From: Cyanidioschyzon merolae | Lineage: Eukaryota | Direction: 5' to 3' (one strand) | DNA length: 64,000 bases | NCBI GenBank assembly: GCA_000091205.1 | Contig: AP006498.2 | In this document: piece after piece, positions 1 through 56,138 of the stretch | Position numbering within the stretch: the stretch's first letter is position 1 | Layout of the letters: each line of letters begins with the position of its first letter | The notes under the pieces: generated by a model | What the model saw: only the letters and a program-made list of their open reading frames with translations | What the model was told of the DNA's origin: nothing | Database searches by the model: none | Made by a program: the position numbers and the translations under genes

Positions 1-1160
1 ACGGAACACCATGCCCTTGTTCGTTGAACAGACTGGAGCCTCTCCGAGCGTATCGTCGAGAAGAAACCCGTAATGATAGGATAGGGTACGATACTAGGCG
101 CGCAACCGGATGGTGCAGGCATCGACTGGTGCCTTCTGTACCCGTCAACGGTATGTTCCGAGCGACGAAGCGAGCATTCCCGTTTCACAGGCCGGCACGC
201 GCAGAGCAATGAAGTGTGGTGGACATACGGGAATCCCTGCTCAGAGACAAGCGCCACCGCTGGGAATTGCATATCGAGTCCATAGACAAGGAACACGCGA
301 ATGGCAAACGAAGCCAAGTATGTACCGACTGCCTGTGCATGAACGACGTCTACAACAGCAGAAAGCGTCGAAATCGGGACGTTCACGCTGCCGTCCGAAT
401 CCTTCGTGTGCTGTTAACGGCACATGAATGCAACGAGAGATCACCGTATGCATCGCCGAAGAGAAGCGCGAGCAAAATGAATCAGGTACAAAGAAGCCCT
501 TAAAGGCGGGTGCTGTCGACAGTGGAACGCTCCCCAAACCTAAGCGCGTACGTCCGAGCTAGCCAAGCAGACCTACCACATTGTAAGCTGACACGACTCG
601 AATAGAAAAGGCATCGGAAGTGTAAATTGACCAGGTGTGGCATCGCAGGAGCGCTGATCCCCAAGGCGAGAAGCGCGCGACGGCACCCCAGCATCTGTTC
701 TGAAGCGATACGCCTTGAACGCGCTACCAGGATATCAAACGTTATCTGCACGAAACTCGCAGCACCCAGCATACATTGTACTTTGTAACGTGCTGTGCTG
801 TGCTGTGCAACGCCCTGATCAGTATCCGGCGTGATCGCCTCTGGACTCCTCGAACAGCGCTGGAGGTGCAGTTTCCTCGAATCTTGGACCGCTGGAGCCG
901 CTCTTCTGGGCCGCTTGACTACGCTCACTGAGGCATTTGGGTGCACCTGGGTTCTGCGAGCGAAGACTACATGAAATCGGGCAGAAACGAACAGGGGGCA
1001 TGTTTCATCGCCTACGCTACAGCTTTCGCCTCTAACCCGCTGTGTGACTACTTGCCAGTCTACTCGACAAAGCTGGTTCCTCTTACCATAGAGACCTTCG
1101 GTAAAGAGCGCACTTGGCTCAGCCTACGTGGTTGAAGCAGTGCTGTAGCCGCGAGATAAG

Positions 1161-1917: not shown

Positions 1918-3981
1918 ATGTTGTATTGGATAGTTGTTGCCACACTGGCTATCGTGAATGGTTGCTTCGCTTGGTACTGGACCCGAGCTGCAGATGGGTA
2001 CACGAAATCATCGACACTGCAGACACCGTCGACGCTGCGCCTTGTTCGCCAGCACTGGCGGAGCCAGCCAGCGCCATCGAACGCCTTGAGTTCTTTATGG
2101 CATGAGTATGGTGCCCTGCTCTCCGCCAGGTGTTGCTGTGCTTTCTGGACGTATATTCCGGACGCCGAGACGTATCTTCGTGCTGCACTCGGTCTGCTGG
2201 GATCGTTGCTGCGCCATCGACAAGGCGTACCTGTTGTGGTACTCGTGGGCTTTAATCGCTCAGATCAGGCGTTCACGCGAATCGCATGGGACTGGAACCC
2301 TGACCACCACACGCCCGAACGTGGCGTTTATTTGAAGCTGATTTCACGTGCTGCAGCGCCAGCGGAACAGGAGCTTGTGGTGCGCAAGCTTTTGCACACC
2401 CCGAAATGTGCAGGTATACCACGGCGTCTGCTGCGGCTCGATGCACGCGCAATGCTGCTCGAGCCGATAACGGAGGTCTTTCTGCGTCCAGACTGGTTGC
2501 AGGTTCTCTCCTGGGAGCAGCGCTTAAACTGTACACACCAGAGCGTGCAAGCACCTTTGCGGTATCGGGTGCGGCTCGCTGAACAGCGGCTGGCCCGACG
2601 AGCCGCACTGGATCAGAGCCAACTTCTCAGCTGGTACCGAGCGGATTGGCGCATGGTCCACTTCGAACCCGGCCTGGAACCGGGAAACCTTTGGCGGGCA
2701 CTCTTGAACCCGCAGGTCGAAACCGGTACCGGTGTTCTCTATCCACCAGCCTCAGCGGATGTACAGCTGTTGGAGGACTTTGATCTCCCTCTGGTATATG
2801 ATTGGTTGCGAAACGCAGAACGATGGATGCGTCGGGTCCACAAGCGACCGCTCTGGTCTCCTTCACCAGAGATGCATTTTCGGAATCGCTTCTGTCACCA
2901 CGCTCTGGGTCATTATCGTCAACGGAACCGTGATGCGCGATCCAGAACGATTGAGACTTTTACCGTGCTGGTGAATGCATTCTCTCGACAACGAATCCAG
3001 GCTGGCCTCCTGGAAGCGATTCTCGAACGGTATTGCAGGATTTCCTCGGTGGCGAGCATCGTCGTCCTCGTGTACGAGCTGGATACCCTGCAAATCGCTG
3101 AGGATCTGGGCAAGCGCCTCGGCGGATGCGTACCCATTCGGGTGCTCCGGCTCGACGGCCCCGGAGCGGACTCGCTGAACCACCGTTTCTTACCGTTACC
3201 ATCCTGGATCGAAACTGCGGCTGTGCTGCACACCGATGATGACATGCTGCCGGTTCATGATGCGCTCATCGAGTTCGGTTTCCGACAGTGGCGAAAGCGA
3301 CACGCGCAGCAGCGCGGGCAACCTAACCTCGTCGGGTTCGTTCCGCGTTATGCTGATCCACAAGCTCACCTGTATGCGCTACGGAAGCCGCCCGTGTCGC
3401 GCTCGAAAGCGCAGCATATCTGGGATCGTCGCGATGCTGTGCAATCGTATAACATTGTTCTCACCAAGCTTGCTTTTGTTCCGCACATCTATCATTTCCT
3501 CTATACCTGCATTCTACCGTACATACCTTTAGTGGAGCCCGATGCCATGGACCTACTCAACATGGTCGATCGCGTGCGCAACTGCGAAGATATCGTGATG
3601 CAGGGTCTTGCAAGCGTGGTTGCTGGAAAGCAGTCGCCGCTGGTCGTTCGTGGACTGAGCTCCGCCGACCTCGCCGATTACGGAAGCACTGACGATCAAC
3701 ATGCTATCTCGATGGGTGAACATGCCTCCCTGTGGGTCACCTCGGCAGGCAATCCAATGACCATGACCCGGCTGAGCGGTTTCGATGCGCACCTCTGGCA
3801 ACGCGGTCAATGCGTTGTTGCGGTCCAGCAGACACTTGGTCGTGGAGAGTACGCATCATCGATTTTCTCGGAGCAGACATCTGTAGCTGCGCCTTTCGAA
3901 GCTGCACCAGTACCTGTTCAGCGGGATCGAATGCCGGTCTGCAGTGTGGTTAACACGATGAATGCCGTATGGGTAATTTGA
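1918..3981 (+). CDS. Glycosyltransferase family 64 (exostosin-like, EXT C-terminal domain type) type-II membrane protein
   Basis: Uninterrupted ORF (track ORF 1765..3981). The Met at 1918 is followed by a hydrophobic signal anchor 'MLYWIVVATLAIVNGCFAWYW'. The C-terminal domain has DXD-type 'HTDDDMLP' and '...RNCEDIVMQGLASVVAG', which matches the conserved GT64 block (animal EXTL 'ANCEDILMNFLVS') from memory. The true start could instead be 1765. Confidence 0.7.
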   Translation: MLYWIVVATLAIVNGCFAWYWTRAADGYTKSSTLQTPSTLRLVRQHWRSQPAPSNALSSLWHEYGALLSARCCCAFWTYIPDAETYLRAALGLLGSLLRHRQGVPVVVLVGFNRSDQAFTRIAWDWNPDHHTPERGVYLKLISRAAAPAEQELVVRKLLHTPKCAGIPRRLLRLDARAMLLEPITEVFLRPDWLQVLSWEQRLNCTHQSVQAPLRYRVRLAEQRLARRAALDQSQLLSWYRADWRMVHFEPGLEPGNLWRALLNPQVETGTGVLYPPASADVQLLEDFDLPLVYDWLRNAERWMRRVHKRPLWSPSPEMHFRNRFCHHALGHYRQRNRDARSRTIETFTVLVNAFSRQRIQAGLLEAILERYCRISSVASIVVLVYELDTLQIAEDLGKRLGGCVPIRVLRLDGPGADSLNHRFLPLPSWIETAAVLHTDDDMLPVHDALIEFGFRQWRKRHAQQRGQPNLVGFVPRYADPQAHLYALRKPPVSRSKAQHIWDRRDAVQSYNIVLTKLAFVPHIYHFLYTCILPYIPLVEPDAMDLLNMVDRVRNCEDIVMQGLASVVAGKQSPLVVRGLSSADLADYGSTDDQHAISMGEHASLWVTSAGNPMTMTRLSGFDAHLWQRGQCVVAVQQTLGRGEYASSIFSEQTSVAAPFEAAPVPVQRDRMPVCSVVNTMNAVWVI

Positions 3982-6727
3982 ATTGGTGGACATCGGCGCA
4001 TCCCTGCTGCTTTCCGGTGTCATGATGATGAGGTCGCTCGGGCGAATCACCATAGACCGTCGTGAAAATGGAGCACGTGCTGTGCTTTGCTCCACCGACG
4101 CCGTTTCAGCTTGAGGGAAGCGCTGAATGATGGTGCACAGGCCTCGTTTCCCTGTGGTGTGATGGGGCTTCGTTTCGTACCTGCCGGTTTACGAACAGAA
4201 TGCGCTGCATCGCTCGTGACTTGTGATCTTGCCGAAGCGCTGGGCTCCTCGATGGTAACCGGACACACATGGGCTGCAGCAGCAAGGTCCGAACCGACCC
4301 CAATGCGTAAATCCATGCTCGAAAGCGTACATTCATATCTGGGTACATAAGTATGCGCCAGCGTCGATGCTTGTGCGTCCATGCGAACGATCCATTCATG
4401 TAGAGACGAACACACTCGTATATGCAGGCCCGCTTTCAGATCCTACATCGACTTGAAATGGGAACATTTTGCAGCGCTACGCCTGGAGCATTGAATGACG
4501 CCCATCATTGCAGGCGGTATCGCTAGCTGGCGAACAGGTAACGCCGCTCGAGCGAGTCTTCGGATACACTGACAATGGGATGCGTTGATCTAGAGCACTG
4601 GCTGACGTTTGAAAAGTCGCTGGCCATCCTGATACTCCCTGGTGAGACGACACGCGTTTGGTCTTGCACGTTACCTATTCAATGGCAGTGGAGGCGCGAC
4701 GAAACCCGCCCTCAAACGTAACCTGAGACGTGAGTCAACGCGCGCCAGCTTCTGTTGAGCATCTCATGCATGTTCAGATAGCATGCTCCACAGATACCGT
4801 GTGAAGGTTCCTGAAAAATCGTCCATTTTCCAGGTCAGTTCGTTTTGTGCTTCACGAAACTGAGTGAAAATGACGTGCCGGCTGGTCGATGTTCAGCATC
4901 GGGAAGAGTTCTTTGCTGGGCGTCGACCTGTATTTAGTTAGTAGGCCAGGATGGATGCGTCGAACAAAATGCGGCAGCGGAGCGCAGTGCGCAAATTCGA
5001 CTTGAACGCTCACAGCGTCCTACACCTGCTTCAGATAGAAATTGAAAAGTACATTGAGCGCTGTGTTCCTGGCTTGATATTCTGTTACGAGCGTTTGTCG
5101 ATGATGAACAGTTTCGACAATTTGTATGAAGCAATGAGTACGTTTCCAGTCGTACATCGATTTAGGATTGTGCATCGGTGTTGTGGAGTGCTTTTTTAGA
5201 ATATTTTGCGGGCGGCATTCGTTCGTCATGAGAATGAAGATGATTCGTGACGCCCACCGCCTACGATTCCTGGAGTAACCGATAGGGCCGTCCAACGCAC
5301 AGGTACAAGCCTCCACTCTTCTGCTTTCCCAAAGAGCAGTATACCCAGGTCACGCATGCTTCACGTTTTCGATACGTCTCTGTGGAGCGATACTTCATGG
5401 GTGAAGCAAGTTGCGCCGCTGCATGAGCAGCTCGAAGAAAGTCTTGTTCATCGTCATCCGTTGACGACTTGGTCACCCGCTCATGCCGAACGTTCACTGA
5501 ACATCGCACCTCAAGCAATCGACTCGGATCGAAACGCAAATCCTTTTCTCTTTGCGAGCATCGGTGAGCCTGCATGCCACTGCAGCATGATGCCAGCTCG
5601 AGTGCTATACTCGCAGCGGCTCCCGTGTATCGTGTTTGCGTGGAACATCGTTTTAGAGTTTATTCACCGCAGCGATCACTTGACATGGGGATTGCGTCAG
5701 CGCTCTATACGAAGCGAGCGTAGGCAGATTGAACGTTCTCGATTTCATCTGCAGCCTGGAATTTTCTTCCGATTCTTGCTTGACCACATAATACATCGCG
5801 TTCCGTAAATCCTCCATGGAATCGAACAGCATGCGCGCATGTATTCAGCGGACCGAGCTCTTGCCTCGGGGAATGCTCTGAAAAAGCCCGGGATAGCAAG
5901 GTAGTGCACCGGGCACGGAAAGGAAGCAAGGCATCCTGGTTAGCACTCTGTATCCGTCAAGCGCTTGTACAGAGCAATGACTCAATCAATGAAGCGCTAC
6001 AGGGCGACAATCGGGGGCGTATATGCGATCCACACAGGGGAAGCCTCGAACGCGGGCACGTTTCATCGTTGCGGAAGGTAAACCGAGGCTGTATACATAG
6101 CAGATGGGCCCGGCAAGCGAAGCGAATACCGCAAGGCCCATCTGTGCATGACATAAGTCGACAACAGCCGGAATCTACAAAATCGCAAGTCTAATCCTGT
6201 CATCAATATCCTTCGACTGTTGGTAACCGAGCTTGAGGGAAAGGAAATACCTGCGTTTTGAGAGCCTGAGACGAGATGGAAGAAAATGAAGCAGTCGCAG
6301 AAATTGCCCCCAACGCCTGGTGTTCATCACTGTGGAATGTCATGCAAACTTTGATCTGTACGTCGGTGATCGTGGATCCATTCCATTCTATGCAGGCGCG
6401 GTTATCAACAGACCCTGAGAGCAAGCTCAGGTGTTAGGATGACCTCCGCCTGACTCGTGTACCCCAAACGCACATGCACGCCTTCTGGGACGTTGCGTGC
6501 ACGCATGCCATGCAGGATCGATATATCTACTTATATTCATAAAAATGTAGATATATTTAGATAAGTTCAGATTGTCGAGTTAACCCCCCAATGGAGCACG
6601 CACCCGCGCAGGGGCAGAGGCCTTCGTCAGGCCTGTTGTTGTATGGTGCAACAGTACCTCAACGCTAACGCCATGCACTTGTAACAAACGTACTGCACTC
6701 GGATACCTCAGTATCACGTTATTCTTC

Positions 6728-8091: not shown

Positions 8092-8364
8092 ATGAATGTT
8101 CACCAATTGCTTGGGAAAGTCGCGTTCCCTCTGCTTGTGCTGGGCGCTGCAGCCTTTCTGGATTGCAGACCGCTGCCATACCAGTGTCGTGCTCAAGGTG
8201 CGAATCCAATCCAAACTCTCTCCTGGTCTCTGAGTTTTCTTGCATCGACATGCTGCAGCGTTTCAGTACAAGGCCCGTACTGTGCACTGAACGATGCCCT
8301 CGAACGCTCGCTCGACACAAAGCCGCTGCACGCTCCTGAAGAACAAGTCTCTCGCGCGTGTTGA
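8092..8364 (+). CDS. Hypothetical small secreted cysteine-containing protein (90 aa) with a predicted signal peptide
   Basis: Internal Met at 8092 of track ORF 7891..8364 starts a signal-peptide-like 'MNVHQLLGKVAFPLLVLGAAAFLDC', followed by a Cys-containing segment. I recognise no homology. It could be a chance ORF. Confidence 0.15.
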   Translation: MNVHQLLGKVAFPLLVLGAAAFLDCRPLPYQCRAQGANPIQTLSWSLSFLASTCCSVSVQGPYCALNDALERSLDTKPLHAPEEQVSRAC

Positions 8365-8761
8365 TCATGACGTTCTAGTTGCGATGCGTACAATGCATAT
8401 GCGCACTGTTACAGGTGGAGACACAATACCAGAGCAAGCTGCAGAGCTTGGATTGCCTCTCCATCCGAGGTTCAGTCAGCTTAGCGTGCACCGTCTGGTG
8501 CAGCGTTCTCCGTTCGACTGCCTTTTTCCCTATTTGTTTCGGAACGCATTCGTTCTCGTGATGTGTGGACGTCTGCCTGAGCGCACGGACGGCAAGCTTA
8601 CGGCATCGATTCATGTGCTCGGTGGACGCTCTCCTCGACAGGGCGGAAACGCAGGCTCTGCGCAGGATGGCACGTCGGATGCCACAGGCGACCTCCAAAG
8701 CGCACGACCTGACGGTCATTTCCATCGCAAATTATTCAAGAAAGTGACGAATATACGCTTC

Positions 8762-9397
8762 TTACCTCCGCACAATCGAGCCCGTTGTCGATCCGATCGC
8801 ACGCTCATAAAGTCCTGCCACGAGTCGTCCGCATGAGACATTCGAACGCTCATGCGCTCTCTCGACGAGCCATACAAAAGAGTTCCATCTGCTCGCTAGG
8901 GTGCAGAGAGCGTCGAGAAGAGCCCTGACGCGGTCATTCCTTTCGCTGGCATGCCTCGTTGCGCCCATGGTGTCCGACTCTGGATAGTACCGAGCTGCGG
9001 AAATTTTGAGCAGCTTCATCTGCGTTCCGCTAAGACCCGCATCTCCTTCCTCTTCATTTTGAGGTACCAATACAGCAGCGATCTTGCGCAACCCGGGATT
9101 CACGCTCACAAAAAAGTTTTTCTCTTCATCCACCCGAATGGATTGCACATGAACCATTTTACCCTGCTGGATCGTTTCCGGCACCGGCACTGCTCTTGTC
9201 CCGATCGCCAACGTTGCCACGCAGCAGCTCAAGGTATCCCGGGAAGCGGCTGAGCAAATCATCGATCCTGAGACTAGAACGTAACGCGTTGTGTGTCCCG
9301 AGCGTCCGACTCGTTGTCGCATGCAGATTTCGCTGAGAAAAAACTCTCGAGGAGCGTCGACAGCTGGCAGCTCTGCGTCCGAAACGCCCACGAACAC
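8762..9397 (-). CDS. Hypothetical protein (211 aa) of unknown function
   Basis: ORF in an otherwise gene-free interval. The segment 'FFVSVNPGLRKIAAVLV' is faintly reminiscent of an S1/OB-fold (eIF1A-domain-like) core. Not confidently assignable. Confidence 0.25.
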   Translation of the reverse strand: MFVGVSDAELPAVDAPREFFLSEICMRQRVGRSGHTTRYVLVSGSMICSAASRDTLSCCVATLAIGTRAVPVPETIQQGKMVHVQSIRVDEEKNFFVSVNPGLRKIAAVLVPQNEEEGDAGLSGTQMKLLKISAARYYPESDTMGATRHASERNDRVRALLDALCTLASRWNSFVWLVERAHERSNVSCGRLVAGLYERAIGSTTGSIVRR

Positions 9398-13500: not shown

Positions 13501-13818
13501 AACAGCATCAGCTGTTCCGAACACGCTGATCATTTCTTTCAAGCTTCGTTCAAAAAGAGTTTCAGCGTCTCGCAACAGATCCGAACCCTCCAAGGTCGCA
13601 GGTGCGGGCGGTCTCGGTTCCGTAGTAGCTGCACGGGGTTGCGTGCCGAGCGCTCGCTGCACGGGTGCGGGCCTTACACCAGCCAGTTGCGAGGCCGTCG
13701 ACCCAGCCAGCGGTACGTTGTCGTCGGTATCCATCGTAGTAAACAAGAAGAGGGCGCTCGAGGCGCAAACCGCACAGGAACTTGTTGTCTGCCAGCTAGG
13801 ACAGTAACCGCTTGGCAC
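10585..13818 (-). CDS. Large conserved-looking hypothetical protein (1077 aa), predominantly alpha-helical with coiled-coil N-terminal region
   Basis: A 3.2-kb uninterrupted ORF, far too long to occur by chance. Leu/Ala/Glu-rich heptad-like stretches in the N-terminal third. No family recognised from memory; possibly a tethering or scaffold complex subunit. Confidence 0.6.
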   Translation of the reverse strand: MPSGYCPSWQTTSSCAVCASSALFLFTTMDTDDNVPLAGSTASQLAGVRPAPVQRALGTQPRAATTEPRPPAPATLEGSDLLRDAETLFERSLKEMISVFGTADAVEASTGNSDSPVLELKQRLANIASEASSFPFLRELTTTSDDHVTRFAVDQSSAIDNTALVADTVARSMREGSTLIDWQHVQEMLASIDECIHRTLCQHRPELLKPLAGMQQKIGEIEARLDDLLNDFAEADCLYRQETAEWHQLEALQGEIRDLTEAERVLRCTIFILGKLEHFEQTYLAVLDRLADSQQSATASTSHPVLADHAASLSQAAALLSDLFELMRPELFETVPWMSAVIERGKSYSRRVYMLGFELLERAASVRDFAAAQRLGSALALAEGFVSFLDALEAEAQTRAADLVSLLDPGHALAMTSGASRNTRNSDAAHGLESMQKAVDSRETNLLVDQELLENAALLNMLWMAAPADDIPAVPDAVTPMTAHVGEHLIDQYRQNAKTFYIELTEYLDRLSFLEEVLSTSTHSTRFDCVQQASNASGFEKQSVPATRRAMPREVFFRDLTTRLVTLYERLNCVQDQHERVPGTSARSLVAICYPLLGEALRTAARHCLLKNHYAPDTPVVEGEVTAHESFHQLDDFLERLGNAFSDLVEKAWARRFARVSNLQGIEDESRESSPVRLGIIHTKYGVAKQLRQCLRLAWAYRNALPALERLMRRVASTLLVRSKLLCERLHHYKQTQKLEVVSMLLSVLVCLWSLRESVCENLHGYDLALDLVSSESETSADVAADEPVHAWLRYRDQIDQCGRDATRTLLELVANQVEAQLHLALARKQHQPEDVRKSGSQLWAGVTEASMLLRRFGVLLHSCLPTSSIWMDCLREALLEPLEEALVYCVVLRPINTVKDLNELRRNLLPLWRLTLLGLASGGLPDQQRTCPEQLQTLTRFEHLIELECEEADAGISDMQIGLPVHVLALFAISRSDERILQPHIRLQWSMERYRTWLKCHIADERTIWGSIEPSIRLYGQQVQQSSDNAFIPQFRILQHLRHRLDSETMPEKNSPDVCVEKSAPCSGQPRDTNDS

Positions 13819-19643: not shown

Positions 19644-20168
19644 CAGGTGCATCGAAAGCTCGCTGGCGACGCTGCGAGCCATGTCAACGTGTCGAGAGGC
19701 TTATTGCTTGTTCCGAAAGAAGCTGGATCTCGTTTCCGCCCCGCGGGAAGTGCATCGTGCACCAGAAGCGGCATCGCAGGTATTCTGTGCGATGGACGGA
19801 TGCGGGGCTTTGGCGTTTCCACAAACTCAGCGCTACTAAAGGTAGACGGGCTGACATTGCTGCCTCGCGCGCGCTCTGCGTCAAGTCCGTTCGTTGTGAT
19901 TGTGGCTGGTTCCGAGAAGCGCGTGCTACCACACGTGGACCCTTCAGTGTCACCGCCGATTTTGCGGAGAGCATTCCAATGAACTTGGCGGAGCAGAGCT
20001 TTCGGCGACCTCGACGTTCGCGAGCGTGCGGCATCGCTGTCTCTGCTCCGCTGAGCTCGGCGTTAACCGTAGGTGTGGCGCACGAGAGGTCGCTGGACCT
20101 AGTAAGTCTCTATTCGTAAATTGGAGGCGATTCATGGATGAATGGAATGCTCAGGCGTTGATACAGAA

Positions 20169-20440
20169 CCTTGGGCAGTGTCCCTAGATATTCAGATTGC
20201 CCGTGCATTCACAGAACATTTGGAGCAATGCTTCCATCCAGTATCACAGGTAACTTGAATAAACCTTGGGCAGTATCCCTAGATATCCAGGTTGCCCGTG
20301 CATTCACAGAACATTTGGAGCAATGCTTCCATCCAGTATCACAAGCAAATTGAAAGCACCTTGGGCAGTATCCCTAGATATCCAGATTGCCCGTGCATTC
20401 ACAGAACATTTGGAGCAATGCTTCGATCCCATATTCCAAG
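20169..20440. repeat. Tandem minisatellite, about 2.9 copies of a 95-bp unit (20169-20263, 20264-20358, 20359-~20440) between HIRA and HOP2
   Basis: Visible repetition of 'ccttgggcagt(g/a)tccctagata(t/c)(t/c)cag(a/g)ttgcccgtgcattcacagaacatttggagcaatgcttccatccagtatcaca...'. The repeat generates spurious repetitive small ORFs in the track (20171..20353, 20266..20466, 20292..20600). Confidence 0.85.
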
Positions 20441-27744: not shown

Positions 27745-28349
27745 CCAAGGCGTGCCAGACCCGCACGTTGACAAACCCATGGCATGTCGCGCAACGGCCA
27801 ACGTGTGAAGCGAGATGGTGTCCGGTGGTGCCTTGTCTTTGCCAGGCGTTGGCATTGAAAACTATGTATCGACACTGGTGTCGGATGGAGACGGAATGCT
27901 GGAATGGTCGCTCTGCTCCTGAATTTCGATGTTTTCTACGTTTACGACGTGAAGAACGTCGGCATTCCAAGTGCAGCAAAAAGGGCTCACGTACGCATAA
28001 GTAGTTTTAGGAATCTCGGTCGTCGTTTTGGAGTGCCCCATACGACTCCATGTCGATCGACTTCGCCACGTCACCGCCATGAGCATGGTTCGTGATATCC
28101 TCGAAGGAGGATTCGTAACGTAACCGACATGTCTATCCAATGCATTCGTACGAGGCTTCACGCTTCTCCTTTCGTTACGTCGGACATGCCCAAATCGCGC
28201 ATGCTTCAGGTTCTCGATCTTCTGTTTCAAGGCATTTTATGGGCGAAGCGAATTGCACCGACAGCTTGATAAGGACAAACACTCGACGTCGTTGCCTGAG
28301 GACCTGTTGACGAGCTCATGTCGGAACTTTACTGAACTTGTCACGTCAG

Positions 28350-29040
28350 ACGATCTCTTCCATTCGAAAAACAAATGACATTCTCTTTTCACCCACTGAC
28401 AAAAGCGCATTCGATACCTGCAGCACGGTACCTCTGCGGGGATATGCGCCCAGAGGCTCCCGCCGGTTTTCCCGGTCGGAAAAGAGTCATGCACTCGGAA
28501 TCGAGTCATCGCCGCGCTCTCTTGCAGTGGCGAGTGCGTCACTGCCTTGCACGAAGAGAGCGTTGACGGAAAGGATTGTTACGACTTGCTCTCCAGCCTG
28601 GATCCTCCTACTGGTGTTGCTTTAGTCATGGACAACATCGTGTTCCATGAATCCTCTGTCGAATGGAACAGTGTGCGCATGCACGTGCAGCGCAGCGAGT
28701 ACTTGCCGATGAGATTGCCCAGAAGAAGCCCGTGATCGGACGGTATGGCACCGGGTGCGGATACGGACCAAGGCACCCAGCGGAGACCTTGATTCTCGTC
28801 AACGGGGGCGTATACCAAGCGTTGACGCAATCTATAACGCGCAACAGGTCCGCCCTTGGGAGAGGAATTGTGGTGGTGGACGTGTGCGAACACCTGGTCT
28901 CAGACAAGTGTTTCTGTTGTGAAGAGCGCACCGACGATGCACACAAGGAGGGTACGTATTGCGAGTGGAGCGTAGATCGCAACTTGCGCCTACGCATGAA
29001 ATACGTGAAGAGCTGCTGGGAGCTGTGTAATCGGGTCTTG
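28350..29040. repeat. Copy A of a diverged, dispersed paralogous segment (about 0.6 kb); partner at 41997-42580
   Basis: Collinear homology at about 70% identity with a near-constant offset of about 13,535 bp. Examples: A 28651 'atcctctgtcgaatggaacag' vs B 42186 'aatcctccatggaatgggacag'; A 28721 'agaagaagcccgtgatcggacggtatggcaccgg' vs B 42258 'gaacaagcccgcgaccaaagggtacggcaccga'; A 28991 'tacgcatgaaatacgtgaag' vs B 42531 'gtgcatgaaatgcttgaac'. A carries an extra ~115 bp at about 28370-28470. ORFs on both strands are conserved only as fragments. Confidence 0.55.
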
Positions 29041-29970
29041 GGCGCTGCCATCAACATCCGTCGACTGCGCACAGCAGAGTTGTCGCTACGAGAGACACCG
29101 GTATATCGAAAGCAGGAGATCACAGGGAGAAAACGAAGTAGTTGCAAAAATGCCCACAAAGGCTACTGCTGACAAAATTTGGAAGACACGCAATGTTGAA
29201 CATGTACACCCGAGTTTGACAACCCGTCTCACCGTAAGCTGATACGGGCATCGTGCATCGTATTGTACCATGCGGTGCAGAGACGCAGCGATCGGCCATG
29301 CTCTACATAGAACACATGCTTGGTCATACCTTTTGAGACGGTGGCGTATGGTTCGGGTTCGCGGAGCCGCGCCCGAGGCCGTCCGTACTTTACAAAAGAA
29401 TCCATGGGAAGCTTCCGCAAGTTGGATTCATGACTGCTTCCGAGCCGCCTTTGGGTGTACGGCAAGCATACCGTAGCCGGCAGCGATGGGAGCAGCGCGC
29501 AGGGCCCCGTCTGTGTTTCAAGCAAGAATCCTTGGGAAGCTCCCGTTCGCACGCAACATGACTGCTTCACAGCCGACTTGGGGCGTACGAGAATCCCAGC
29601 GCACAACCGATAGCGATTGCGGCATGGTCGGAAGCCGGGCACCACGACCACTGCGAAATGGCCGCCATGCCCAGCGTGCGGCTGTCGCCGCCTAACCGGT
29701 TACACACGTTACCGCTGCAGTTGCAGCAGCAGGACGTGGAAGCGTATTCCGCAGGGGTAGTGTCGCCGGCCCTGACTGCAACAAAACGTCTGAGGGCGTC
29801 TGTTTCATGCAGACGACAGGCCTCTCTGCCGCCGTTCGGTCCAAGTCGGGCCCCAGGCTGGAGGCATCGTTGCGCTCCGTGGCAACGGTGCCAACAATCT
29901 GACCTGATTCGCTCGACGAGCTGGGAAGCAGATCCGAATAGAGGTCGGCACGGAAAGCTACTGTATAACG

Positions 29971-31686: not shown

Positions 31687-31765
31687 GGTTTACCTTCTCG
31701 TTACATAATGCAACCCTCAGAGGCTGCCTGATAAAATTGGTTAGCGTCAGCAGTGCGGGCCTCTT

Positions 31766-31848
31766 TTCGAGGACCGCACATCCCCTGATACTGATTGTGG
31801 CGTGAAAGTCTCGGTTCACGAACTCGATGCGTTTCTTGCTATCACTGG
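31766..31848 (-). repeat. Copy D of a short dispersed conserved element (48-nt near-identical core); partner at 56054-56138 on the opposite strand
   Basis: The reverse complement reads 'agcaagaaacgcatCgagttcgtgaaccgagactt..atcagtatcag', against 'agcaagaaacgcatGgagttcgtgaaccgagactt..atcagtatcag' at 56054. This is 47/48 identity in the core and about 80% over about 85 bp. It sits about 230-300 bp upstream of the NADK start codon. Confidence 0.6.
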
Positions 31849-32349
31849 TTGTACTTACTAATGCAAGTGGCCCTCGAGGTTTCGCCCCCCGTTCCATTTG
31901 CTCTTGTGTCACCGCTCTGTGCTTTTCTATATCCTCAGGGGTCCGCTGGCGCTTTCCCATCTCGACCCTCTGAAGTCTACACCCGAGCTCACGGTGCATC
32001 CAGGACGTTCGGAACTCATCTATCGGCATTGTGGAAAAACGGTGCGTGCGTTCCGTGTATGCTCGTGTCGACGGCGCTGGTGCGCTCGCTTTTGTGGACG
32101 CCCTGCTCCGTACGCTACTACAAGCTTCTGACTCTTGTCTTCCTTGAGAGCGCTGAACTCATTGAAGTTGTTGAATGCACACGGCTTCCCCTGGTGCATT
32201 TTCGTACGCTGACGAACACAACGGGGCGGCTTGGTGTGCTCGTTCCACAGCTCCTCGTCATGAGCAGCGCGAATTCTCGTGAATGAAAGGAAAGCTTGAA
32301 AGTGCGCTCCTCGGCTCGTCACGCTGCTGATCGCTTCCTGGGGGCACGT

Positions 32350-33869
32350 TCACTCATGAGCCCCACTTCTGACTTTTTTCCTCGCATTCATTATTCCCGA
32401 TTCTCGGTAGTATCTCGCTCCTGAGAACTTTGAAAGACACATGTCTTTCTGACATAAGTTGCCGTCGATACCATCCTTCGCACACTTCGGAGCAACGATG
32501 GTCATGATATTCGTGTTGCCGGGCTCAAGGCCGGAGACATTTTCATTCTCCTGCAATTCCTGCGTCTCAGGGTGCGCCCTATTGGTTTCTTTGTGCATCG
32601 CCGAGGGCGCAGCCGACGACACAATGGGACGATCCACCTGCAACCGCCGATACTGGACACATATGGATACCCCATCGGTTTCGATCAATCCAGTGAATAG
32701 CTGTTGTTTGCTCGCTTTGAGACGTTTGAAATCGAAGATACTCTTCCAGTACGTCTCCCGGTTTTCACCGGAGAATTCCTCCCTGCTAACATCGAACTCC
32801 GGACAGATCTCCTTCATGATACCGTGAAGGATTCTGGAGCCGATACTCACAAAATGTGACTTGATGTTGCATATAGGAACCACGTTGAAGCGCTTGCCCA
32901 TTAGGAAAGCCTTCCGTCTCTCCCACTCTTCATTGTTTTCCTCACTCAGTTTCATCTCCGCCTTGCGTTCGAGTTCTCGGTCCAAAAACACGAAAGATCG
33001 CAGGATGAGGCGATGGTATCCTTCCTCATCTTTTTCAACTCTGATATACTTTCTGCTGGACTCGCCAGCCCCAGGACTGCACAGTGCTCTTGTATAGCCG
33101 CACGGGTTACAGAAGCTTCTTTCGTTCTCCTGCGTGACGCTTTCTTGTCGACAAATTCGATCTCCTGCTCATCCCGGGAATCGTTCGTAATGGCATCGAT
33201 GATGGCCCACATCCCTGTGCGAGACAGGCCCGGGCGCATTGCAAAGACGGAGCGTATCATGAAGCGCTTGAGGTTTATGTTCATACGATTCTTCAGGTTT
33301 GTGAGATACTTTATTGCCCTGTCTTCGTACATGCGCCAGTGTCCCCTGTATCGAGTAACGTTGAAGCGGTAGTTGGCGAAGCTTTCGTGGAGGGCGTGCT
33401 CCCGCTCATTCCTCGTCGGCGTTTCCCCTGTGCAAACCGCCAGGTGGCGGATGAAGGTCTTGTTGAAAAATTCTTCCCGACACTCGAATGGTTCAATTTG
33501 CGTCACGTCGTGAAACATCTACGTCACCAATTTCATTACTCCTGAAAAAGCCTTCATAATACTCATGGCGTACGACTCGACACGGTTTCTGATGGCCTTT
33601 TGCAACTTTTGCTCGTACGGATCCTTGATAAATCGAAGAGGACAGGCTTTCACCACCGTCTCGCCGTAGTGTAGCCTTTCGTGTAGCTTTTGGCTCCCGG
33701 CCTCCTGCCTCTGATTCTTCGTCCTGTTCCCCTGGACTCGGCACCGTTTTTCGTTTACTTCCGGCAGCCGGCGCCACTGCGCCTCCAGGATCTTCCACTT
33801 CCTTTTCCATAACTTTCCTTTTTCATTTTTCATTCGAAAAAGAACACACTTTGAACGCTTCTCCGACAA
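32350..33869 (-). pseudogene. Degenerate about 510-aa coding sequence split over three minus-strand ORFs (33869-33519, then an in-frame stop, 33518-32952, then a +1/-1 frameshift, 32991-32350) inside a low-GC island. Probable mobile-element / transposase-like relic
   Basis: ORF C ends with a stop at 33519-33521 and ORF B begins at 33518 in the same frame. ORF A overlaps B by 40 nt in another frame. The island at 32300-34200 is visibly AT-richer (about 45% GC) than its surroundings. The product is Lys/Arg/Glu-rich with a segment 'LFTGLIETDGVSICVQYRR' reminiscent of the 'xTDGxxxF' catalytic region of KDZ / Tnp2 (CACTA)-type transposases. That family assignment is speculative. Confidence 0.35.
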
Positions 33870-35090
33870 ACAGCGAAAAGCACTTGAATATACTTACTTG
33901 AGGGCTGAAACACAATTGAACTGAAAAACTATTCTTTGCGATGCCTTCAACGCAAATACAACTTGTACTCTACAGCTAGATCATATAGATCAGGCTCGCG
34001 TTTCCCTTCAACGGCGAGGTGCGCGTCGTATCTCGTGCCTGCCACATCTCCCAGGTGCGAGTATCGAGTACACTACGTAGAACAAAGAACAGAGACTAAT
34101 CACTTACTAGCAACGAAATTACGATTTCTTTTCCCCTCTACGGTATACGTAAAAATGGAGGACAGGTTTCCGTATTTTCGAAGCTTTACCTTATGGGTGA
34201 AATTTCCCGCGAGCCGGAAGAGTCTCCCAGACTTGTGCTTCATGCCGCCAAGTGGCAGGTGCTTGATTGAGATCCGAGCAACTTGTGCTCAACGCAGTTT
34301 CTTCTGGGACTTGGAGCGGGCATGCTGCGTCTGGGCGTCGCCTGGCCCTAGTGGACCCCTAGTACATCGCTTCGCGCTGCCGCTTTTCGTGGGTCTGTCT
34401 GCGCAGCTTGCAGGCGCTCAGAATAATTAAGAGCCTCAACTACGTCTCACCTGAAGCATTCCTCGAGCCGACGCCCTCAGTGGTATGGCAAAGCTGTTCT
34501 GTCTCTGTGCAGCATCTGGTTCAGCGGTGTGAGCGCTACGGCGGGTGCTCACGGCAGGTAATCAGCGATCAATAGCACGTGCGAAACGACCAGTATTTCC
34601 TTGAGGAAGTACGGGTAATGGAACTTGGAGGTATGGTGCATCATGGTACACAATTACGTGAATCTTCATACCCACCCCGAAATCTGGGATCCAATGTCAA
34701 TGTAAACGTTTTGTCATCGAAGAAAACATCGACGCACCACACCATCAGGAAACCTGCACGCACGCATTCCAGTGCAGATCGCCGAAAGCGACGCGATCAC
34801 GAAACGACAGTGGCCGAAGCCTGGATCGCGCTGCCACCGCAGAGGCGCACGGAGAGCCTGCCACGTGTCCATCGTGTTTGATCATGCAAACGCGCCGCGA
34901 TGCTTCGTTGCGCGGCGGGTGCGCTTCCAGGGCGGACACCGCCCACTGTGATCGCCGCCTAGTGAGGGCGGCGCTGACGTTGACGCGCAACGCGTTTGAG
35001 AAATGAGGTTCTTTTGTCGGTGCACGGCACGCGAGCGCTGGTGAACGGTCAACCGAACGCTGTGCACGCCCTGTTGCCGTTATTTTCCCT

Positions 35091-41192: not shown

Positions 41193-41202
41193 GATTTGAT
41201 TT

Positions 41203-41316
41203 GGAATCGAACCCACGGCCATTGGATTAAAAGTCCAATGCTCTACCGCTGAGCTACGTTGGCTGCGCACGGCGCGTCGAATGCTCAATTCGCGGTGCGA
41301 TCGCCAACGGTGGGGA
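41203..41316 (-). tRNA. trnK-UUU: Circularly permuted tRNA-Lys (anticodon UUU) gene. The 3' half (T-stem 3' strand + acceptor 3' strand, 41303-41315) lies upstream of the 5' part (acceptor 5' strand through T-loop, 41203-41263), separated by 39 nt
   Basis: Minus-strand read of 41263..41203: 'GCCAACG TA GCTC AGCGGTA GAGC A TTGGA CTTTTAA TCCAA TGGCC GTGGG TTCGATT CC'. This is a perfect cloverleaf through the T-loop with anticodon TTT, but no complementary 3' strands follow. Upstream on the same strand, 41315..41303 reads 'CCCCAC CGTTGGC', which pairs with T-stem 'GTGGG' and acceptor 'GCCAACG', followed by discriminator G. Confidence 0.6.
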
Positions 41317-41345
41317 ATTCGCAGCAATGTACATTGTTCAAAATT

Positions 41346-41356
41346 GATATATATAG
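41346..41356 (-). promoter_or_regulatory. TATA-like element ('gatatatatag') about 30-40 bp upstream of the permuted tRNA 3' half; candidate Pol III upstream promoter
   Basis: Position and sequence only. Upstream TATA elements are typical of permuted/split tRNA genes lacking an intact internal A/B box arrangement. Confidence 0.3.
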
Positions 41357-41996
41357 ACATGGTTTGAAGCGTGCAGAGAATCGCGGCAACGTGTTGACGC
41401 TGGTGCGTGCACGGCACTCGCATCAGATTCCAGTGGAACGTTGAACTGCTCGTTCTGTTCCTGAATCTCTTTTTTTTGTATATTTAGTCTTTATTTTCAA
41501 TGCGCAGCAATAAAGGCTTACGGATTCACGGGTAATTTTTGGGTGCTCGGTTTTCGTTTTTGCGTAGCTCATTCGAATCTCACGTCGATGGCCTGCGTTG
41601 CGTCACTGGAATCCAGCGCATTCGCGACGCCCTCAAGCGGCGGTTCCGCGCCTAACACATATCATCACCATCATCATCCAGTTCCTATGGGTAAGCTTGG
41701 ACGCTTCTGATTTGCTTATGTGTAGCATGCGCACATCATGTATGCTGCATGTTTTCCATCATTCTGTTTCATGGCGACTCGTAGGTGCAGTAACTCGCAT
41801 CGCTAATTTGATGGGATATAAACGCGACGTCGTTTCTTGATGACTTGTTCACAAGCTCAAGTCGGAGGTCCACTAAAGTCGTCACATAAAATAAACGTTT
41901 TTCAAAGAAACAAAGTCTCCGCTCTCTACCGCCATCGGCCAAACGTTATTCGTGAGCACCTTGATGCCCTTTGAGTTATGCTCTGAGAGACTCGTA

Positions 41997-42580
41997 TCCC
42001 TTCCATTCGGACGAAAGAGGCTCTTGCATTGGGAACTGAGTCATCGCAGCGATCGCTTCTCGTGGGGAATGCGTCATCGCTTTGCAGGACGGGGCACGAG
42101 ACGGATCGAAATTGCTCGGACGCTGCTCCATTTTAGATTTCGCTTCAAGTACTTGCTCCATCATAGGCAATATCGCTTTTCAGAAATCCTCCATGGAATG
42201 GGACAGCGTTCGTTTGGACGCGCAACGCAAAGCGTACTCGTCAATGGGATCGCCGAGAACAAGCCCGCGACCAAAGGGTACGGCACCGATCGTGGAAACG
42301 GAGGAACAGCACCGCGGCCAGCCTTGTGTACCCGTCAACAGCACGCATCGGTCGAGGAAGCAAGTCTTCACGTGCATCAGAGCGGTGCTCGGATGACGAG
42401 AAGAAAGGATTGTAGCCGACGTCTGAGAACATCTGATCGCAGCCAAGTGGCACCGATGCGAGCGGCGCATGACGGCTGTATTCAAAGAATATGAAACTGG
42501 CGAGCGGAGTGCAGATTGCAACCACAGTCTGTGCATGAAATGCTTGAACAGTTGTCGAAAGCAGCAATACCTGGAGTGGA
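41997..42580. repeat. Copy B of the diverged dispersed paralogous segment (partner 28350-29040)
   Basis: See copy A. In B a single minus-strand ORF (42180..42830, 216 aa) runs through the region, ending '...GAVPFGRGLVLGDPIDEYALRCASKRTLSHSMEDF'. The homologous A frame reads '...APGAIPSDHGLLLGNLIGKYSLRCTCMRTLFHSTEDS'. Confidence 0.55.
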
Positions 42581-43402
42581 ACGCTGATATCAGCATCATT
42601 CGGCTGTAGGCAACGAAGTTGAAGGGCATGGGGAGCCCCGCGTATTTAAAGTCTGAAACCTGGACGACGAAAAGGTACAAGTGGCACGAAAATCTCGCAA
42701 AAGAAATCCATGGAGGAACAGTGGGGCATTTCGCGTTTGTTCGCTTTTTGATCGTACGTAAGTGTGGAAACCCAACCGCCTTGCCGACAACTACGTAGTC
42801 GCGATACGCCGTCAACTGTAAACGGGCCAACGGTATTGAAACGGAGTCTGCTGATAACGAGTACCGCAGCCGTCCTCAACACGCTCAGACGCTCCCAGGA
42901 CTGACCCGAGAGGCGCCCCAGCGATGCCGCGCTCAGGGTTTGTAGTGCCGAACATCGCACGGGCGCCGAACAAGCCTTTACCAGTTTAGACGATTTTCGC
43001 CACTGTATGTCCATTCGATGAATTTTCACAACATCTCTGACCTGATATAAGCCTCCAAATAAAACAACTCGACACTAGTGGCGACAACGGATGGCACCAA
43101 CTAACCATATCCTCTATATGGACTGGAGCTCAGCAAAGTTATCGCTCCGAAATACACCTCTCCAATAGCTAAGATAAAGCATTTCTACCTAGCCTATAGC
43201 ATTCCCCAACGAGTACGTGTCCTACTGGTGTCCGAAGAGCTCCCAAATACCTGGCTTCGTACTAGATGCTCTGGCTTCTGCTTCGGATTCGCAGACTCGC
43301 CGATCGTTGCCGAGCCTGTGGGGCCTCCGGTCGATGCCATCGAAAAGAAATTTCGATTCGCTTCCTCGGTAGCGTATTGCCACTTTTCGAGAAACGCTTT
43401 GC

Positions 43403-44437
43403 ATGGCGCTCGCTGGACAGGGAGACCCTCGCTGGATTGTGCAAGATCTTGGGAAGCAGGGTAAAAATGTCGGCAACTGGCACTGGACTGAGCGAGATAT
43501 CAGTGTTTGGGCGATGGAGCGACTGCGTTCTCTGCTTCAGGAGGATCCGATCGGTGAACTGCGACTCGCAGACGACACTGTTCAGGTGCAAGTCACGGGC
43601 TCTCCAAGCGTGCACGGGGACTGTGCCCTTTACAACCGCAAGGGCAAACTGCGAAGCGTGTATGACTTGAAAGTTCAGGCGGACTGGGAGGCACGATCTC
43701 TGGCGACGAACGCAGTTTGCGGGAAAGGCACGATCGAGGCGGAGCTCTTCGACACCGACCCTGACGTCACGATAACCCCAACAGGTACGTGGGAACACAG
43801 CGCTCAACTGGTTTCATTTTTAACGCTCGACGGGAAGTCTTGGTTGCACCGGGTTCTCGAGCGCTTCCAGGCTGAGGCGCTGCAACTAGGGACCGGAGAC
43901 ACCGGGTCGACAGTTGCTGGCCAGTCGCAGGCAGCTGAGGCGGTGAAAAATGCAAACAAAGACCACGCAGGGAATACCGCTGCGACGTCGGGTGTGCAGC
44001 AGCCGGAGCAAAGCACGCAATCCACGTGGACAAGCCTTCACATGGAGGAACGCTTTAGGGCACCGCCCAGCGTGGTCTTTCGAGCACTCACCGCTGTGGA
44101 GGAGCTGCAGCGAATCACGCAAGCGCCTGCAACCAGCGATACGACAAGCTCAAACGGAACATTCTCTCTTTACGCCGGTCAGGTTCATGGTAGCTATACG
44201 AAATTGCAGGAGCCAGAGCTTATCGAGCAACGATGGCGTATGGCCGACTGGGTGCCTCGCGATCACTACTCTCGGGTGCAAATGCGTCTCAAAGCCGTCT
44301 CCGACGATGAGACGCTCCTTGTCTTGCAACAAGATCAGATACCCGAGGAATATCTCGAACGGACCCAAGTTGGCTGGAGAGAACGTATCTTTGCGCAGCT
44401 GCGCCTGATGTACAATCTCGGTAGTGCCTATGTGTAG
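43403..44437 (+). CDS. AHA1: Activator of Hsp90 ATPase (AHA1/AHSA1)
   Basis: N-terminus 'MALAGQGDPRWIVQDLGKQGKNVGNWHWTERDISVWAMERL' matches Aha1 'MAKWGEGDPRWIVEERADATNVNNWHWTERDAS.W'. The C-terminal AHSA1/START-like domain is present. 344 aa. Confidence 0.85.
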   Translation: MALAGQGDPRWIVQDLGKQGKNVGNWHWTERDISVWAMERLRSLLQEDPIGELRLADDTVQVQVTGSPSVHGDCALYNRKGKLRSVYDLKVQADWEARSLATNAVCGKGTIEAELFDTDPDVTITPTGTWEHSAQLVSFLTLDGKSWLHRVLERFQAEALQLGTGDTGSTVAGQSQAAEAVKNANKDHAGNTAATSGVQQPEQSTQSTWTSLHMEERFRAPPSVVFRALTAVEELQRITQAPATSDTTSSNGTFSLYAGQVHGSYTKLQEPELIEQRWRMADWVPRDHYSRVQMRLKAVSDDETLLVLQQDQIPEEYLERTQVGWRERIFAQLRLMYNLGSAYV

Positions 44438-54646: not shown

Positions 54647-56053
54647 GACAACGAGACTATCCAGACAGCTACGCTTTCTTTCCACCGCCTGGAGAGTGCT
54701 CGAAAACAGGGCGACGAGGTAGTGGGGGCAGCGAATGCGAGCGCCGCCACAGACGCCACCAACATTGGATACTATTGGCAAGCTTTGTCCATAATCATGG
54801 CATGCGATTCGATTCTGGTCCACCGCCCCTGCATGCCATCGAACGCTTTTTCGCAGAACAGAGCAGGAGATGGAATTTTCTGTGTAATGTACTGAATTGA
54901 TCCCAGACGCATAGCGTATAGTATATATTCTGCAATGAACAGCGCATGACGGAATGCATGCCTCATTCAGGCCAGTCGTACAACTGGACTCGAATGGTTG
55001 AGGAACACTGAAAGAGTTACGTAGATGCACTTTGCGCTAGAAACCGATATTCTCAACGGCTGCTTGCAGTCCATGGCAAAAACGACGTGTTAGTCACTTT
55101 ACGGAAACCGGAATCGACGATAGTAGCCACCGCGGGCATCTCTGCCTCTCAATAGCTTGTTCGTCTGGCCCAGAATACGTTGGGAAACAGTCGCAAAGAT
55201 GCCCTAGTTCTTTCAGGGCCGTCTTCCACCGAAACCGCAACCACAGCTTTCTTGGAACTCGACGATCGGTATGAAGCGCAAGGACGTCGATTTTTGTTCT
55301 CAATCGATGAGACTTGCTTCGGACGAAACGGTCGGAGTGTATATGGGTATTGGCGGGGCATAGTGCCTGTTGCATGTATGATCCAACTCGGAGAGAACGA
55401 ATATATCATCATCCGTTCCAGCTCCAGTGGATACCTATGGCTGCCTCAGTCTCGCTCGCAGAGAAGGCTCATCCAGCAGCATCCACTCTGTCGAATCATT
55501 GAAGACCTTTCCCCATCTGACGCCTAGCGAAGCCCGCCTGCTGGACGACGGGATATTCCACTATTCCCGTTGCTTTCGAGCGTAGGCGGATTCTATCCGG
55601 GTAGAGCTGCTTTTCATTCCTTCGTAATCTCCATGATTCGCCCAGATTCAGGCAGCGTTTTCTATTGTGAAACGTAATGCTCGCTCTGCTGGGCACATCG
55701 CTAAAGCGTTCGGCACACGTTTACAAAACGGCACTTTTCGTCGTTCTTCCGCAAGTCAATCTCCCTACGGGAAGGTTCTCACCCAGAGGCATCAGGGAGT
55801 GCACGCATTTTCAAAACTAAGAAATCTAAAGGAAAGTTTCGGGCATGGAAGTCAGGGATCCCGGAAGGCCGTTATCGCCGGCTGCCGAAAAAACTCCACA
55901 ATCCTCCTCTCGCCCACGGTGGGGCGAAGAAGAGCAAGTCACGAAGAGAAAGAACAGGGAAAATAGAGGAGAAAAAGTGTTTTCCTGATGAGACGATGAC
56001 GGTACTGTAGTGACACCGAGGGCACGAGTTCTGACAATCCTTGCAAAGGTGAA

Positions 56054-56138
56054 TTCCATCAGAAGCAAGAAACGCATGGAGTTCGTGAACCGAGACTTCA
56101 GCGCGGCCATCAGTATCAGACGGCATGTGGTACTGAAG
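56054..56138 (+). repeat. Copy C of the short dispersed conserved element (partner 31766-31848, inverted)
   Basis: See copy D. It lies in the 2.9-kb ORF-poor spacer between the DDX19-like and spermidine synthase genes. Confidence 0.6.

Follow-up and report, generated by a model that had tools for sequence, protein, structure and literature searches.

We found that two similar intergenic stretches in a 64,000-nucleotide segment of the Cyanidioschyzon merolae genome (the whole of which is called the window below) are very probably two of at least 11 decayed copies of one nuclear DNA-transposon family, derived from a composite of an IS630/Tc1-mariner element and Fanzor1. The ancestral composite would have carried terminal inverted repeats (TIRs) of ~21 bp, a DDE transposase at its left and, downstream on the same strand, Fanzor1, a eukaryotic TnpB-like RuvC nuclease. 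The two stretches are ordinary transposon debris and reveal no new mechanism.

The two stretches, hereafter copies A and B, were homologous and collinear on the + strand, as a preliminary description of this DNA had proposed. Using blastn, 28160-28767 aligned to 41701-42302 with 65% identity over 617 columns (E 3.8e-24), and a second match joined 28879-29015 to 42418-42554 (67% identity). The near-constant offset reported between them also held, ranging from 13,533 to 13,542 across the core of a MAFFT alignment (about 13,540 bp). Other particulars needed correction. The two copies were 62-65% identical within the core and 57-59% identical end to end rather than ~70%, the homologous unit was ~1.39 kb (A 27873-29253, B 41415-42801) rather than 0.6 kb, and the 115-bp block insertion described in A was absent from a global alignment, where A and B differed by indels of 1-6 bp only. 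The poorest-conserved stretch of A, 28780-28860, was 45-48% identical to B and contained no insertion, while identity along the alignment was uneven (43-73% per 60 nt). Both copies were indeed intergenic between unrelated flanking genes and had no long ORF in common, with stops in all six frames and tblastx scores that were alike. ORFs of 169-216 aa occurred on both strands of A and B; the 216-aa minus-strand ORF of B, singled out earlier, is meaningless, as the ancestral reading frame lies on the + strand. A 292-codon minus-strand open frame in a 4-copy consensus contained 11-15 stops once 11 copies were used, and was rejected as an artefact of a poor consensus. The left end of B (41415) was located ~50 bp, not ~700 bp, from the conserved permuted-tRNA region at 41205-41365.

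The pair proved to belong to a larger set. An nhmmer profile made from A and B detected copy C at 5308-6231 (E 1e-106) and a partial copy D at 3-419 (E 1e-38), giving four copies in the window, all on the + strand and each within a 2.2-2.7-kb gap between unrelated genes, where only two had been described. As a separate observation on the neighbouring genes, the 738-aa ORF at 1765-3981 has its true start at 1919. The copies in the window and their parts are as follows.

27873..29253, + strand: copy A, whole element, ~1.38 kb (11-copy nhmmer profile, positions 8-1422, at 27864-29286)
27877..27897, + strand: left TIR of copy A, decayed, GGTGTCGGATGGAGACGGAA (fuzzy match with 4 mismatches, 27877-27896)
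27949..28657, + strand: transposase remnant of copy A, N-terminal ~236 codons (DDE_3 and IS630 profile matches)
28664..29085, + strand: Fanzor1/TnpB-like remnant of copy A, C-terminal ~140 codons (tblastn with P0018 and P0017)
29226..29246, + strand: right TIR of copy A, strongly decayed (mapped from consensus nt 1373-1393)
41415..42801, + strand: copy B, whole element (nhmmer 41405-42824, profile positions 7-1423)
41419-41439, + strand: left TIR of copy B
41480-42192, + strand: transposase remnant of copy B
42199-42624, + strand: Fanzor remnant of copy B
42774-42794, + strand: right TIR of copy B
5023..6407, + strand: copy C, whole element (11-copy nhmmer profile, 5012-6415)
5027-5047, + strand: left TIR of copy C
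5104-5815, + strand: transposase remnant of copy C
5822-6237, + strand: Fanzor remnant of copy C
6380-6400, + strand: right TIR of copy C
1..596, + strand: copy D, 3' end only, the window beginning inside the copy (nhmmer profile positions 808-1410 at window 2-595)

At least six more copies were found by nhmmer on other contigs of the same alga; these near-full-length copies (E, F1, F2, G, H, I and J) lay on at least six contigs, with F1 and F2 1.35 kb apart in equal orientation. Copies on these contigs were located by scanning metagenome contigs with one peptide pattern, a one-frame translation used as a search device only, which returned 31 loci. The copy number of at least 11, four of them in the window, is a lower bound. 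A family consensus of 1,425 nt was built from 11 copies, to which individual copies were 70-77% identical (A 74.5%, B 71.4%; K2P 0.28-0.39). This level of divergence accounts for the ~57-60% identity between any two copies, which is the similarity that had first been noticed. Between-copy identity was 0.51-0.61 and star-like, with I and J (0.72) as the exception, as is typical when copies insert in a burst and then decay independently. The ends of the unit were sharp: mean identity across 10 copies jumped from 0.31-0.40 to 0.52-0.68 and dropped back ~1.3 kb further on.

Near both ends the consensus carried a TIR of ~21 bp, CGTGTCAG(C)AT..AAATGGAA. Its Smith-Waterman score of 23 was reached by 0/500 shuffles (mean 12.8, maximum 20). 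The TIRs were decayed in single copies, with matches visible in A and in C (5029-5046 on the + strand and 6381-6400 on the minus strand). Duplication of a TA target site is the expectation for the IS630/Tc1-mariner superfamily. TA preceded the left end in 5/10 copies, and the right flank had a conserved TC(GC) in its place; the element may therefore extend a few bases beyond the mapped termini.

The left part of the unit is derived from a transposase. The 11-copy consensus contained a 261-codon open stretch in + frame 0, and nt 94-801 corresponded to the N-terminal 236 aa of an IS630/Tc1-mariner transposase. It matched Pfam DDE_3 (PF13358) with 35.5 bits (E 1.1e-8, cut-off 28.6) and the NCBIfam IS630 transposase model NF033545 with 52.5 bits (E 5e-14, profile positions 20-237 of 299), the latter under the equivalog cut-off of 100 bits; domain scores were just modestly over threshold and came mostly from the reconstructed consensus. 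Copy A alone matched DDE_3 as well, with 33.6 bits when frame-corrected and with 31.9 bits (E 1.4e-7, cut-off 28.6) in its natural two-frame translation of 28338-28735. Its remnant comprised the putative HTH region and the first two Asp of the DDE domain, interrupted by stops and one frameshift near 28478-28487. The N-terminal HTH model HTH_Tnp_Tc3_2 gave E 0.03-0.05, under its cut-off, and the IS630 match spanned the N-terminal region. The last ~60 residues, including the third catalytic residue, were missing, as the profile match ended at 237/299. A profile search of 5.8 billion proteins found no intact relative of the transposase. Six-frame translation of the earlier 4-copy consensus, which was poor and frameshifted, had likewise given no match among 5.8 billion proteins.

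The right part is derived from Fanzor1. Consensus nt 801-1230 corresponded to the C-terminal 140 aa of a Fanzor1/TnpB protein. The TnpB/Cas12f zinc-ribbon model PF07282 matched the uncorrected consensus (E 3.7e-5) and scored 26.9 bits after one frameshift correction, against a cut-off of 26.3, and TnpB NF040570 gave E 0.007 at profile positions 330-388 of 389. The signature ...HLITAKCHRC...CMKC...RNRDLNAAINIL of the consensus fits the C-terminal Fanzor motif of Bao & Jurka, [TS][TS]-x-x-C4 zinc finger-x(5,50)-RD (PMC3627910), and the remnant in copy A contained GYGTGxG, a C4 zinc ribbon and the RuvC-III motif RD-NAAINI. A profile of the frame-corrected copies retrieved the intact Fanzor1-type proteins P0017 (551 aa), P0018, P0019 and P0021 with E 1e-27 to 2e-15. 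Conversely, tblastn of such intact proteins matched all four copies in the window: A (P0018 to 28651-29139, E 1.5e-15; P0017 to 28660-28923, E 4e-10), B (P0017 to 42147-42471, E 9e-12), D (E 2e-9) and C (P0018 to 5827-6258, E 2e-7). The P0017-type proteins come from metagenome contigs, where their gene neighbours include RNA ligase, 2H-SAK and Peptidase_S74. IMG/VR scans recovered none of the intact Fanzor relatives, no family TIR was found near the intact Fanzor genes on contigs L048/L049, and neither the consensus protein nor its Fanzor portion had a significant match by sequence in the PDB. The short copies lacked the N-terminal ~320 Fanzor1 residues, including RuvC-I, so that a complete RuvC domain with its upstream catalytic Asp (motif GxDPG) was absent, and no copy contained an intact Fanzor1 ORF.

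The junction between the two parts was placed consistently. The BLASTX match to the PUl-1 mariner transposase stopped at consensus nt 801, where the Fanzor match started in another frame, and nhmmer DNA homology to intact Fanzor genes started at profile nt 801-808, equivalent to 28657-28664 in copy A. The short unit thus consists of the first ~236 transposase codons joined to the last ~140 Fanzor1 codons.

The whole length of copy D could be followed on a metagenome contig (L006) that extends 3.3 kb past the window start. There, copy D measured ~2.5 kb (1352-3850), with a 5' half at 1352-2072 and a 3' part at 3241-3847 separated by ~1.2 kb, and this apparent insert was the very Fanzor segment absent from the short form. 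In tblastn, residues 1-353 of P0017 matched 2177-3394 (E 8e-19), starting from Met1, and residues 342-530 matched 3355-3774. By homology, copy D is a transposase remnant followed by a full-length but dead Fanzor1 gene, whole in extent and carrying many stops. The presence of this full-length gene means that the short copies are best read as internal-deletion, non-autonomous derivatives of a mariner and Fanzor1 composite. The transposase remnant of D ended ~50 nt earlier than that of the short form; D is hence not its direct parent, and at least two independent deletions are implied. Copy D and the short form would then be separate deletion derivatives of a larger parent. No intact autonomous copy, with full transposase and Fanzor1 between family TIRs, was found.

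These data suggest the following history. A mariner and Fanzor1 composite transposon was probably once active in the lineage, and internal deletions, whose order relative to the other events we can only infer, would have given rise to non-autonomous forms. The 1.39-kb form, to which A, B, C and most other copies belong, would have lost everything between a point shortly past the second catalytic Asp of the transposase and approximately residue 320 of Fanzor1, a deletion that would have fused the first ~236 transposase codons to the last ~140 Fanzor1 codons. Because this unit is unable to encode either protein, it was presumably copied in trans by a transposase recognising its TIRs. This mobilisation would have been by cut-and-paste transposition into TA sites. 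The family would then have died, and the copies inserted in intergenic DNA decayed neutrally.

Present-day constraint on the copies was not apparent. Mismatches between A and B showed no 3-periodicity ([32, 43, 33] and [39, 34, 37]), and a codon-usage log-odds scan revealed no convincing gene-like frame. When the copies were projected on one coordinate system, amino-acid identity between them was 27-34% in each of the six frames, and every frame of every copy contained stops (6-21). Relative to hot-spring metagenome contigs from strains 99.3% identical to the window, the elements carried SNPs at a density of 0.7-1.1%, compared with 0.7-1.0% for the rest of the intergenic DNA and 0.27-0.46% for genes. 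At the gathering threshold, Rfam matched only a tRNA elsewhere in the window, and an E-value search with copies A and D gave chance-level matches only. The consensus + strand formed no stable fold (z -1.3 to +1.4; 3' region z -1.3 to +0.2). SNP density, absent codon periodicity, stops and the Rfam result together indicate that the copies evolve like neutral DNA. The ANAPC10-tRNA-Aha1 gap has a syntenic counterpart of similar size in Cyanidiococcus, in which the permuted tRNA alone was conserved and no family element was detectable. As further observations on this region, Aha1, encoded at 43403-44437, matches its C. merolae 10D counterpart with 100% protein identity, and the window does not contain the template motif of the telomerase RNA CMP131T.

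We weighed three other explanations against a decayed mariner-Fanzor family. The chimera could have been made otherwise, either by insertion of a Fanzor1 element into a mariner element (or the reverse) followed by truncation, or as a genuine fusion protein of an autonomous 1.4-kb element, uniting the N-terminus of a DDE transposase with a TnpB-type C-terminus of zinc ribbon and RuvC-III. In favour of this, chimerism is frequent among Fanzor elements (PMC3627910), no autonomous parent came out of the profile search of 5.8 billion proteins, and frame 0 of the consensus is almost open through the junction, with 8 stops overall and an 'AYSPRGSP' that resembles YSPxLNP. We nevertheless regard such an origin as improbable. 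Fanzor homology from nt 801 to ~1010 lies out of the transposase frame, so that a single fusion ORF would miss the conserved GYGTGRGNGGGH..PVKxMYRA motif; the transposase part is without its last ~60 residues and third catalytic residue and the Fanzor part without RuvC-I; and the Fanzor gene of copy D, equally placed and oriented, is complete. An assignment to miniature elements (MITEs, under ~800 bp with no coding remnant) was ruled out, as the unit is 1.39 kb and consists of gene remnants almost throughout.

The second explanation, also listed in the preliminary description, is a conserved non-coding element family; selection might then be acting on a gene for a Fanzor guide (omega) RNA, on a long ncRNA or on a cis-regulatory module. 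In TnpB and Fanzor systems the guide RNA normally comes from the 3' gene end or the right end of the element, both of which persist in the short form, and indels are few for ~40% divergence while A/B identity is patchy. Against this, the copies had no Rfam match, folding z-scores were unremarkable (-1.3 to +1.4), SNP density equalled that of other intergenic DNA, the element was absent from the syntenic Cyanidiococcus gap, and neutral decay would predict the observed fraction of invariant columns, leaving a non-coding family under selection very improbable. We give almost no credence to the remaining explanation, that the stretches are a duplicated host gene turning into a pseudogene or members of the CMe-1A / 'WSV486-like' repeat. 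It would draw on the 169-216-aa ORFs on both strands of A and B and on the ~150-253 copies of a Fanzor1 repeat known in C. merolae (PMC1955436, PMC3627910). However, a small duplicated gene does not account for 11 or more dispersed copies that share sharp ends and TIRs and consist of transposase plus Fanzor, the published CMe-1A consensus had no nucleotide similarity to the family consensus in blastn, and the CMe-1 protein has another N-terminus and no C4 zinc finger. Among the readings put forward in the preliminary description, that of a dispersed repeat in decay, for instance a non-autonomous transposon, is thus borne out by the at least 11 copies, the TIRs, the transposase and Fanzor1 remnants and the neutral decay. 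That description had also named a contrary outcome, only two copies with intact ORFs; the opposite was found, with many copies that were all broken.

C. merolae is a model of an extremely simple eukaryotic genome and reputedly has almost no transposons; published figures are 0.7% transposons and 5% repeats, with no LTR elements and no MITEs. Our results indicate that some anonymous intergenic DNA in this alga consists of old transposon debris, recognisable only from a many-copy consensus. Searches for conserved non-coding elements, promoters or ncRNA genes in C. merolae should mask these 1.4-kb repeats, whose mutual identity is 55-60%. At least two further Fanzor-like relics were seen in the window, at 8294-9397 and 55828-56916, and these relics together with the four family copies and one CMe-1A element made up roughly 14% of it. 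There is a small chance that a wider proposition holds, in which several independent lineages of Fanzor-carrying transposons, now too decayed for RepeatMasker-type annotation, built far more of the C. merolae intergenic DNA than published, and the short form may have spread via a guide-RNA module used in trans by the Fanzor1 nuclease. What the abundant short form has kept is precisely the 3' end of Fanzor and the right terminus, usually the guide-RNA module; folding of the consensus + strand gave no support to a guide RNA.

Several repeats of C. merolae itself have been described. Nozaki et al. 2007 (PMC1955436) counted 253 copies of a repeat 3.2 kb long, whose truncated ORF weakly resembles WSV486 of white spot syndrome virus (WSSV). 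They also recorded eight transposase-related 'class II elements', closest in sequence to transposases of bacteria, and the present family may correspond to these. CMe-1A (TE-N2_CMe) is a 3,169-bp Fanzor1 element with ~150 copies in C. merolae (Bao & Jurka 2013, PMC3627910). The white spot syndrome virus genome contains one Fanzor1 (PMC3627910), which would connect CMe-1A to the 3.2-kb 'WSV486-like' repeat. The CMe-1A consensus matched the window at 31758-34719 on the minus strand with 82% identity, 2.5 kb from copy A. CMe-1A resembles the present family in its genome, its Fanzor1 derivation, its decay and its intergenic location, but belongs to another Fanzor lineage and has neither transposase remnant nor TIRs. 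Its copies are also younger, being ~80-82% identical to their own consensus compared with 70-77% in the mariner-Fanzor family. Given this lower identity and the absence of similarity to CMe-1A, the mariner-Fanzor family is separate and older. The 2013 survey listed one Fanzor family only for C. merolae (PMC3627910), and the mariner-linked family is apparently a second, undescribed Fanzor1 lineage in this alga.

The closest relatives of the 3' part are P0017, P0019, P0018 and P0021, which are near-identical in RxxQxALARAAD...KPVIxGYGTGRGNGGGHxGEPSVPVKxMYRAxK and have the motif CxRC...CxxC...RNRDxNAAINIL in common with the C. merolae family. Unlike the C. merolae copies, their genes are intact, lack an adjoining transposase and encode a zinc ribbon that contains a long insert. 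On the transposase side, the family is similar to IS630/Tc1-mariner elements in having a putative N-terminal HTH region followed by an RNase-H-like DDE domain with IDET...GYAPRG...DNxxxHKS, and differs from their transposases in that the match ends at profile position 237/299, the third catalytic residue is absent and no intact member was found.

The system most similar overall is the group of Fanzor1-bearing Tc1/mariner elements PUl-1, PUl-2 and PUl-4 of Pythium ultimum and PGv-1 of Phaeocystis globosa virus (PMC3627910). In PUl-1 and PGv-1 the transposase lies upstream of Fanzor1 on the same strand, TIRs of these composites are 24-33 bp, and non-autonomous or chimeric relatives with common ends have been reported (PMC3627910). 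The C. merolae family has the same architecture, with a mariner/IS630 DDE transposase at the left, Fanzor1 downstream on the same strand and short TIRs (~21 bp), and, as the order of the two genes would predict, its consensus matched first the PUl-1 transposase (25% over 153 aa) and then the C-terminus of the PUl-1 Fanzor. In contrast to the PUl-type elements, the C. merolae copies are all dead and are mostly 1.39-kb forms without the transposase C-terminus and two-thirds of Fanzor1, and their host is a red alga.

All four decayed window copies of the mariner-Fanzor family, an IS630/Tc1-mariner plus Fanzor1 transposon of about 1.39 kb, share one orientation (D at 1-596, C at 5023-6407, A at 27873-29253 and B at 41415-42801). 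The adjacent copies F1 and F2 on contig L026 from the same alga (2357-3715 and 5063-6371) are also co-oriented. Copies of the family are locally clustered, four in the window and two on L026. Co-orientation together with clustering could reflect local hopping or could have arisen by chance, the probability of identical orientation being 1 in 8 for the window's four copies alone.

Aligning copy A (28118-29121) with copy B (41659-42660) revealed very few indels despite about 40% nucleotide divergence; two of the stretches that align without any gap are 301 and 263 bp long. Because indels are so scarce at this divergence, the alignment suggests that the indel-to-substitution ratio may be low in neutral DNA of the C. 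merolae genome. About 50 bp from the left end of copy B lies the following feature:

41198-41365, minus strand, permuted tRNA gene region (Rfam)

The Rfam match covers 41198-41257 at 40 bits, and ARAGORN called no tRNA at 41198-41365. Comparison of the intergenic stretch between ANAPC10 and Aha1, which holds both this region and copy B, with its syntenic counterpart in Cyanidiococcus showed that 41205-41365 is the sole conserved part (79-100% identity).

Other Fanzor-like sequences in the window include CMe-1A, a published Fanzor1 element of C. merolae that lacks nucleotide similarity to the mariner-Fanzor family:

31758-34719, minus strand, near-full-length CMe-1A copy (82% identity to the published consensus over 2,990 bp)
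8294-9397, minus strand, third, diverged Fanzor1-like sequence (tblastn with the CMe-1 protein, and ORF motif)
55828-56249, plus strand, CMe-1A fragments
56557-56916, minus strand, another Fanzor-like piece

The CMe-1 protein matched the near-full-length copy with an E value of 3e-170 (tblastn), and this copy accounts for the drop in GC content, and for the strong AT skew, between 32 and 34 kb. We infer that CMe-1A is the C. merolae "WSV486-like" interspersed repeat. In the diverged sequence, CMe-1 residues 426-704 matched 9127-8294 (tblastn, 27% identity, E 1e-17), and a 211-aa ORF (8762-9397) contains a GxxPG-type RuvC-I-like motif (VSVNPGLRK). The CMe-1A fragments and the Fanzor-like piece within 55828-56916 explain the inverted match between 31785-31840 and 56064-56119 in the window self-comparison, which also detected three short tandem-repeat arrays with 89-97% identity between units:

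1159-1400, unit about 120 bp
20158-20429, unit about 95 bp
59230-59564, unit about 87 bp

At least the last of these overlaps long ORFs.

Searching IMG/VR for relatives of the intact Fanzor1 proteins closest to the 3' part of the mariner-Fanzor family returned none. These proteins are encoded on metagenome contigs L048 (7,757 bp) and L049 (12,552 bp analysed out of 15,579 bp), with a GC content of 0.53-0.56, near genes that include those for an RNA ligase, a 2H-SAK phosphoesterase, Peptidase_S74 proteins, Skp1 and an M16 peptidase. Candidate hosts of these contigs are another alga or a large virus.
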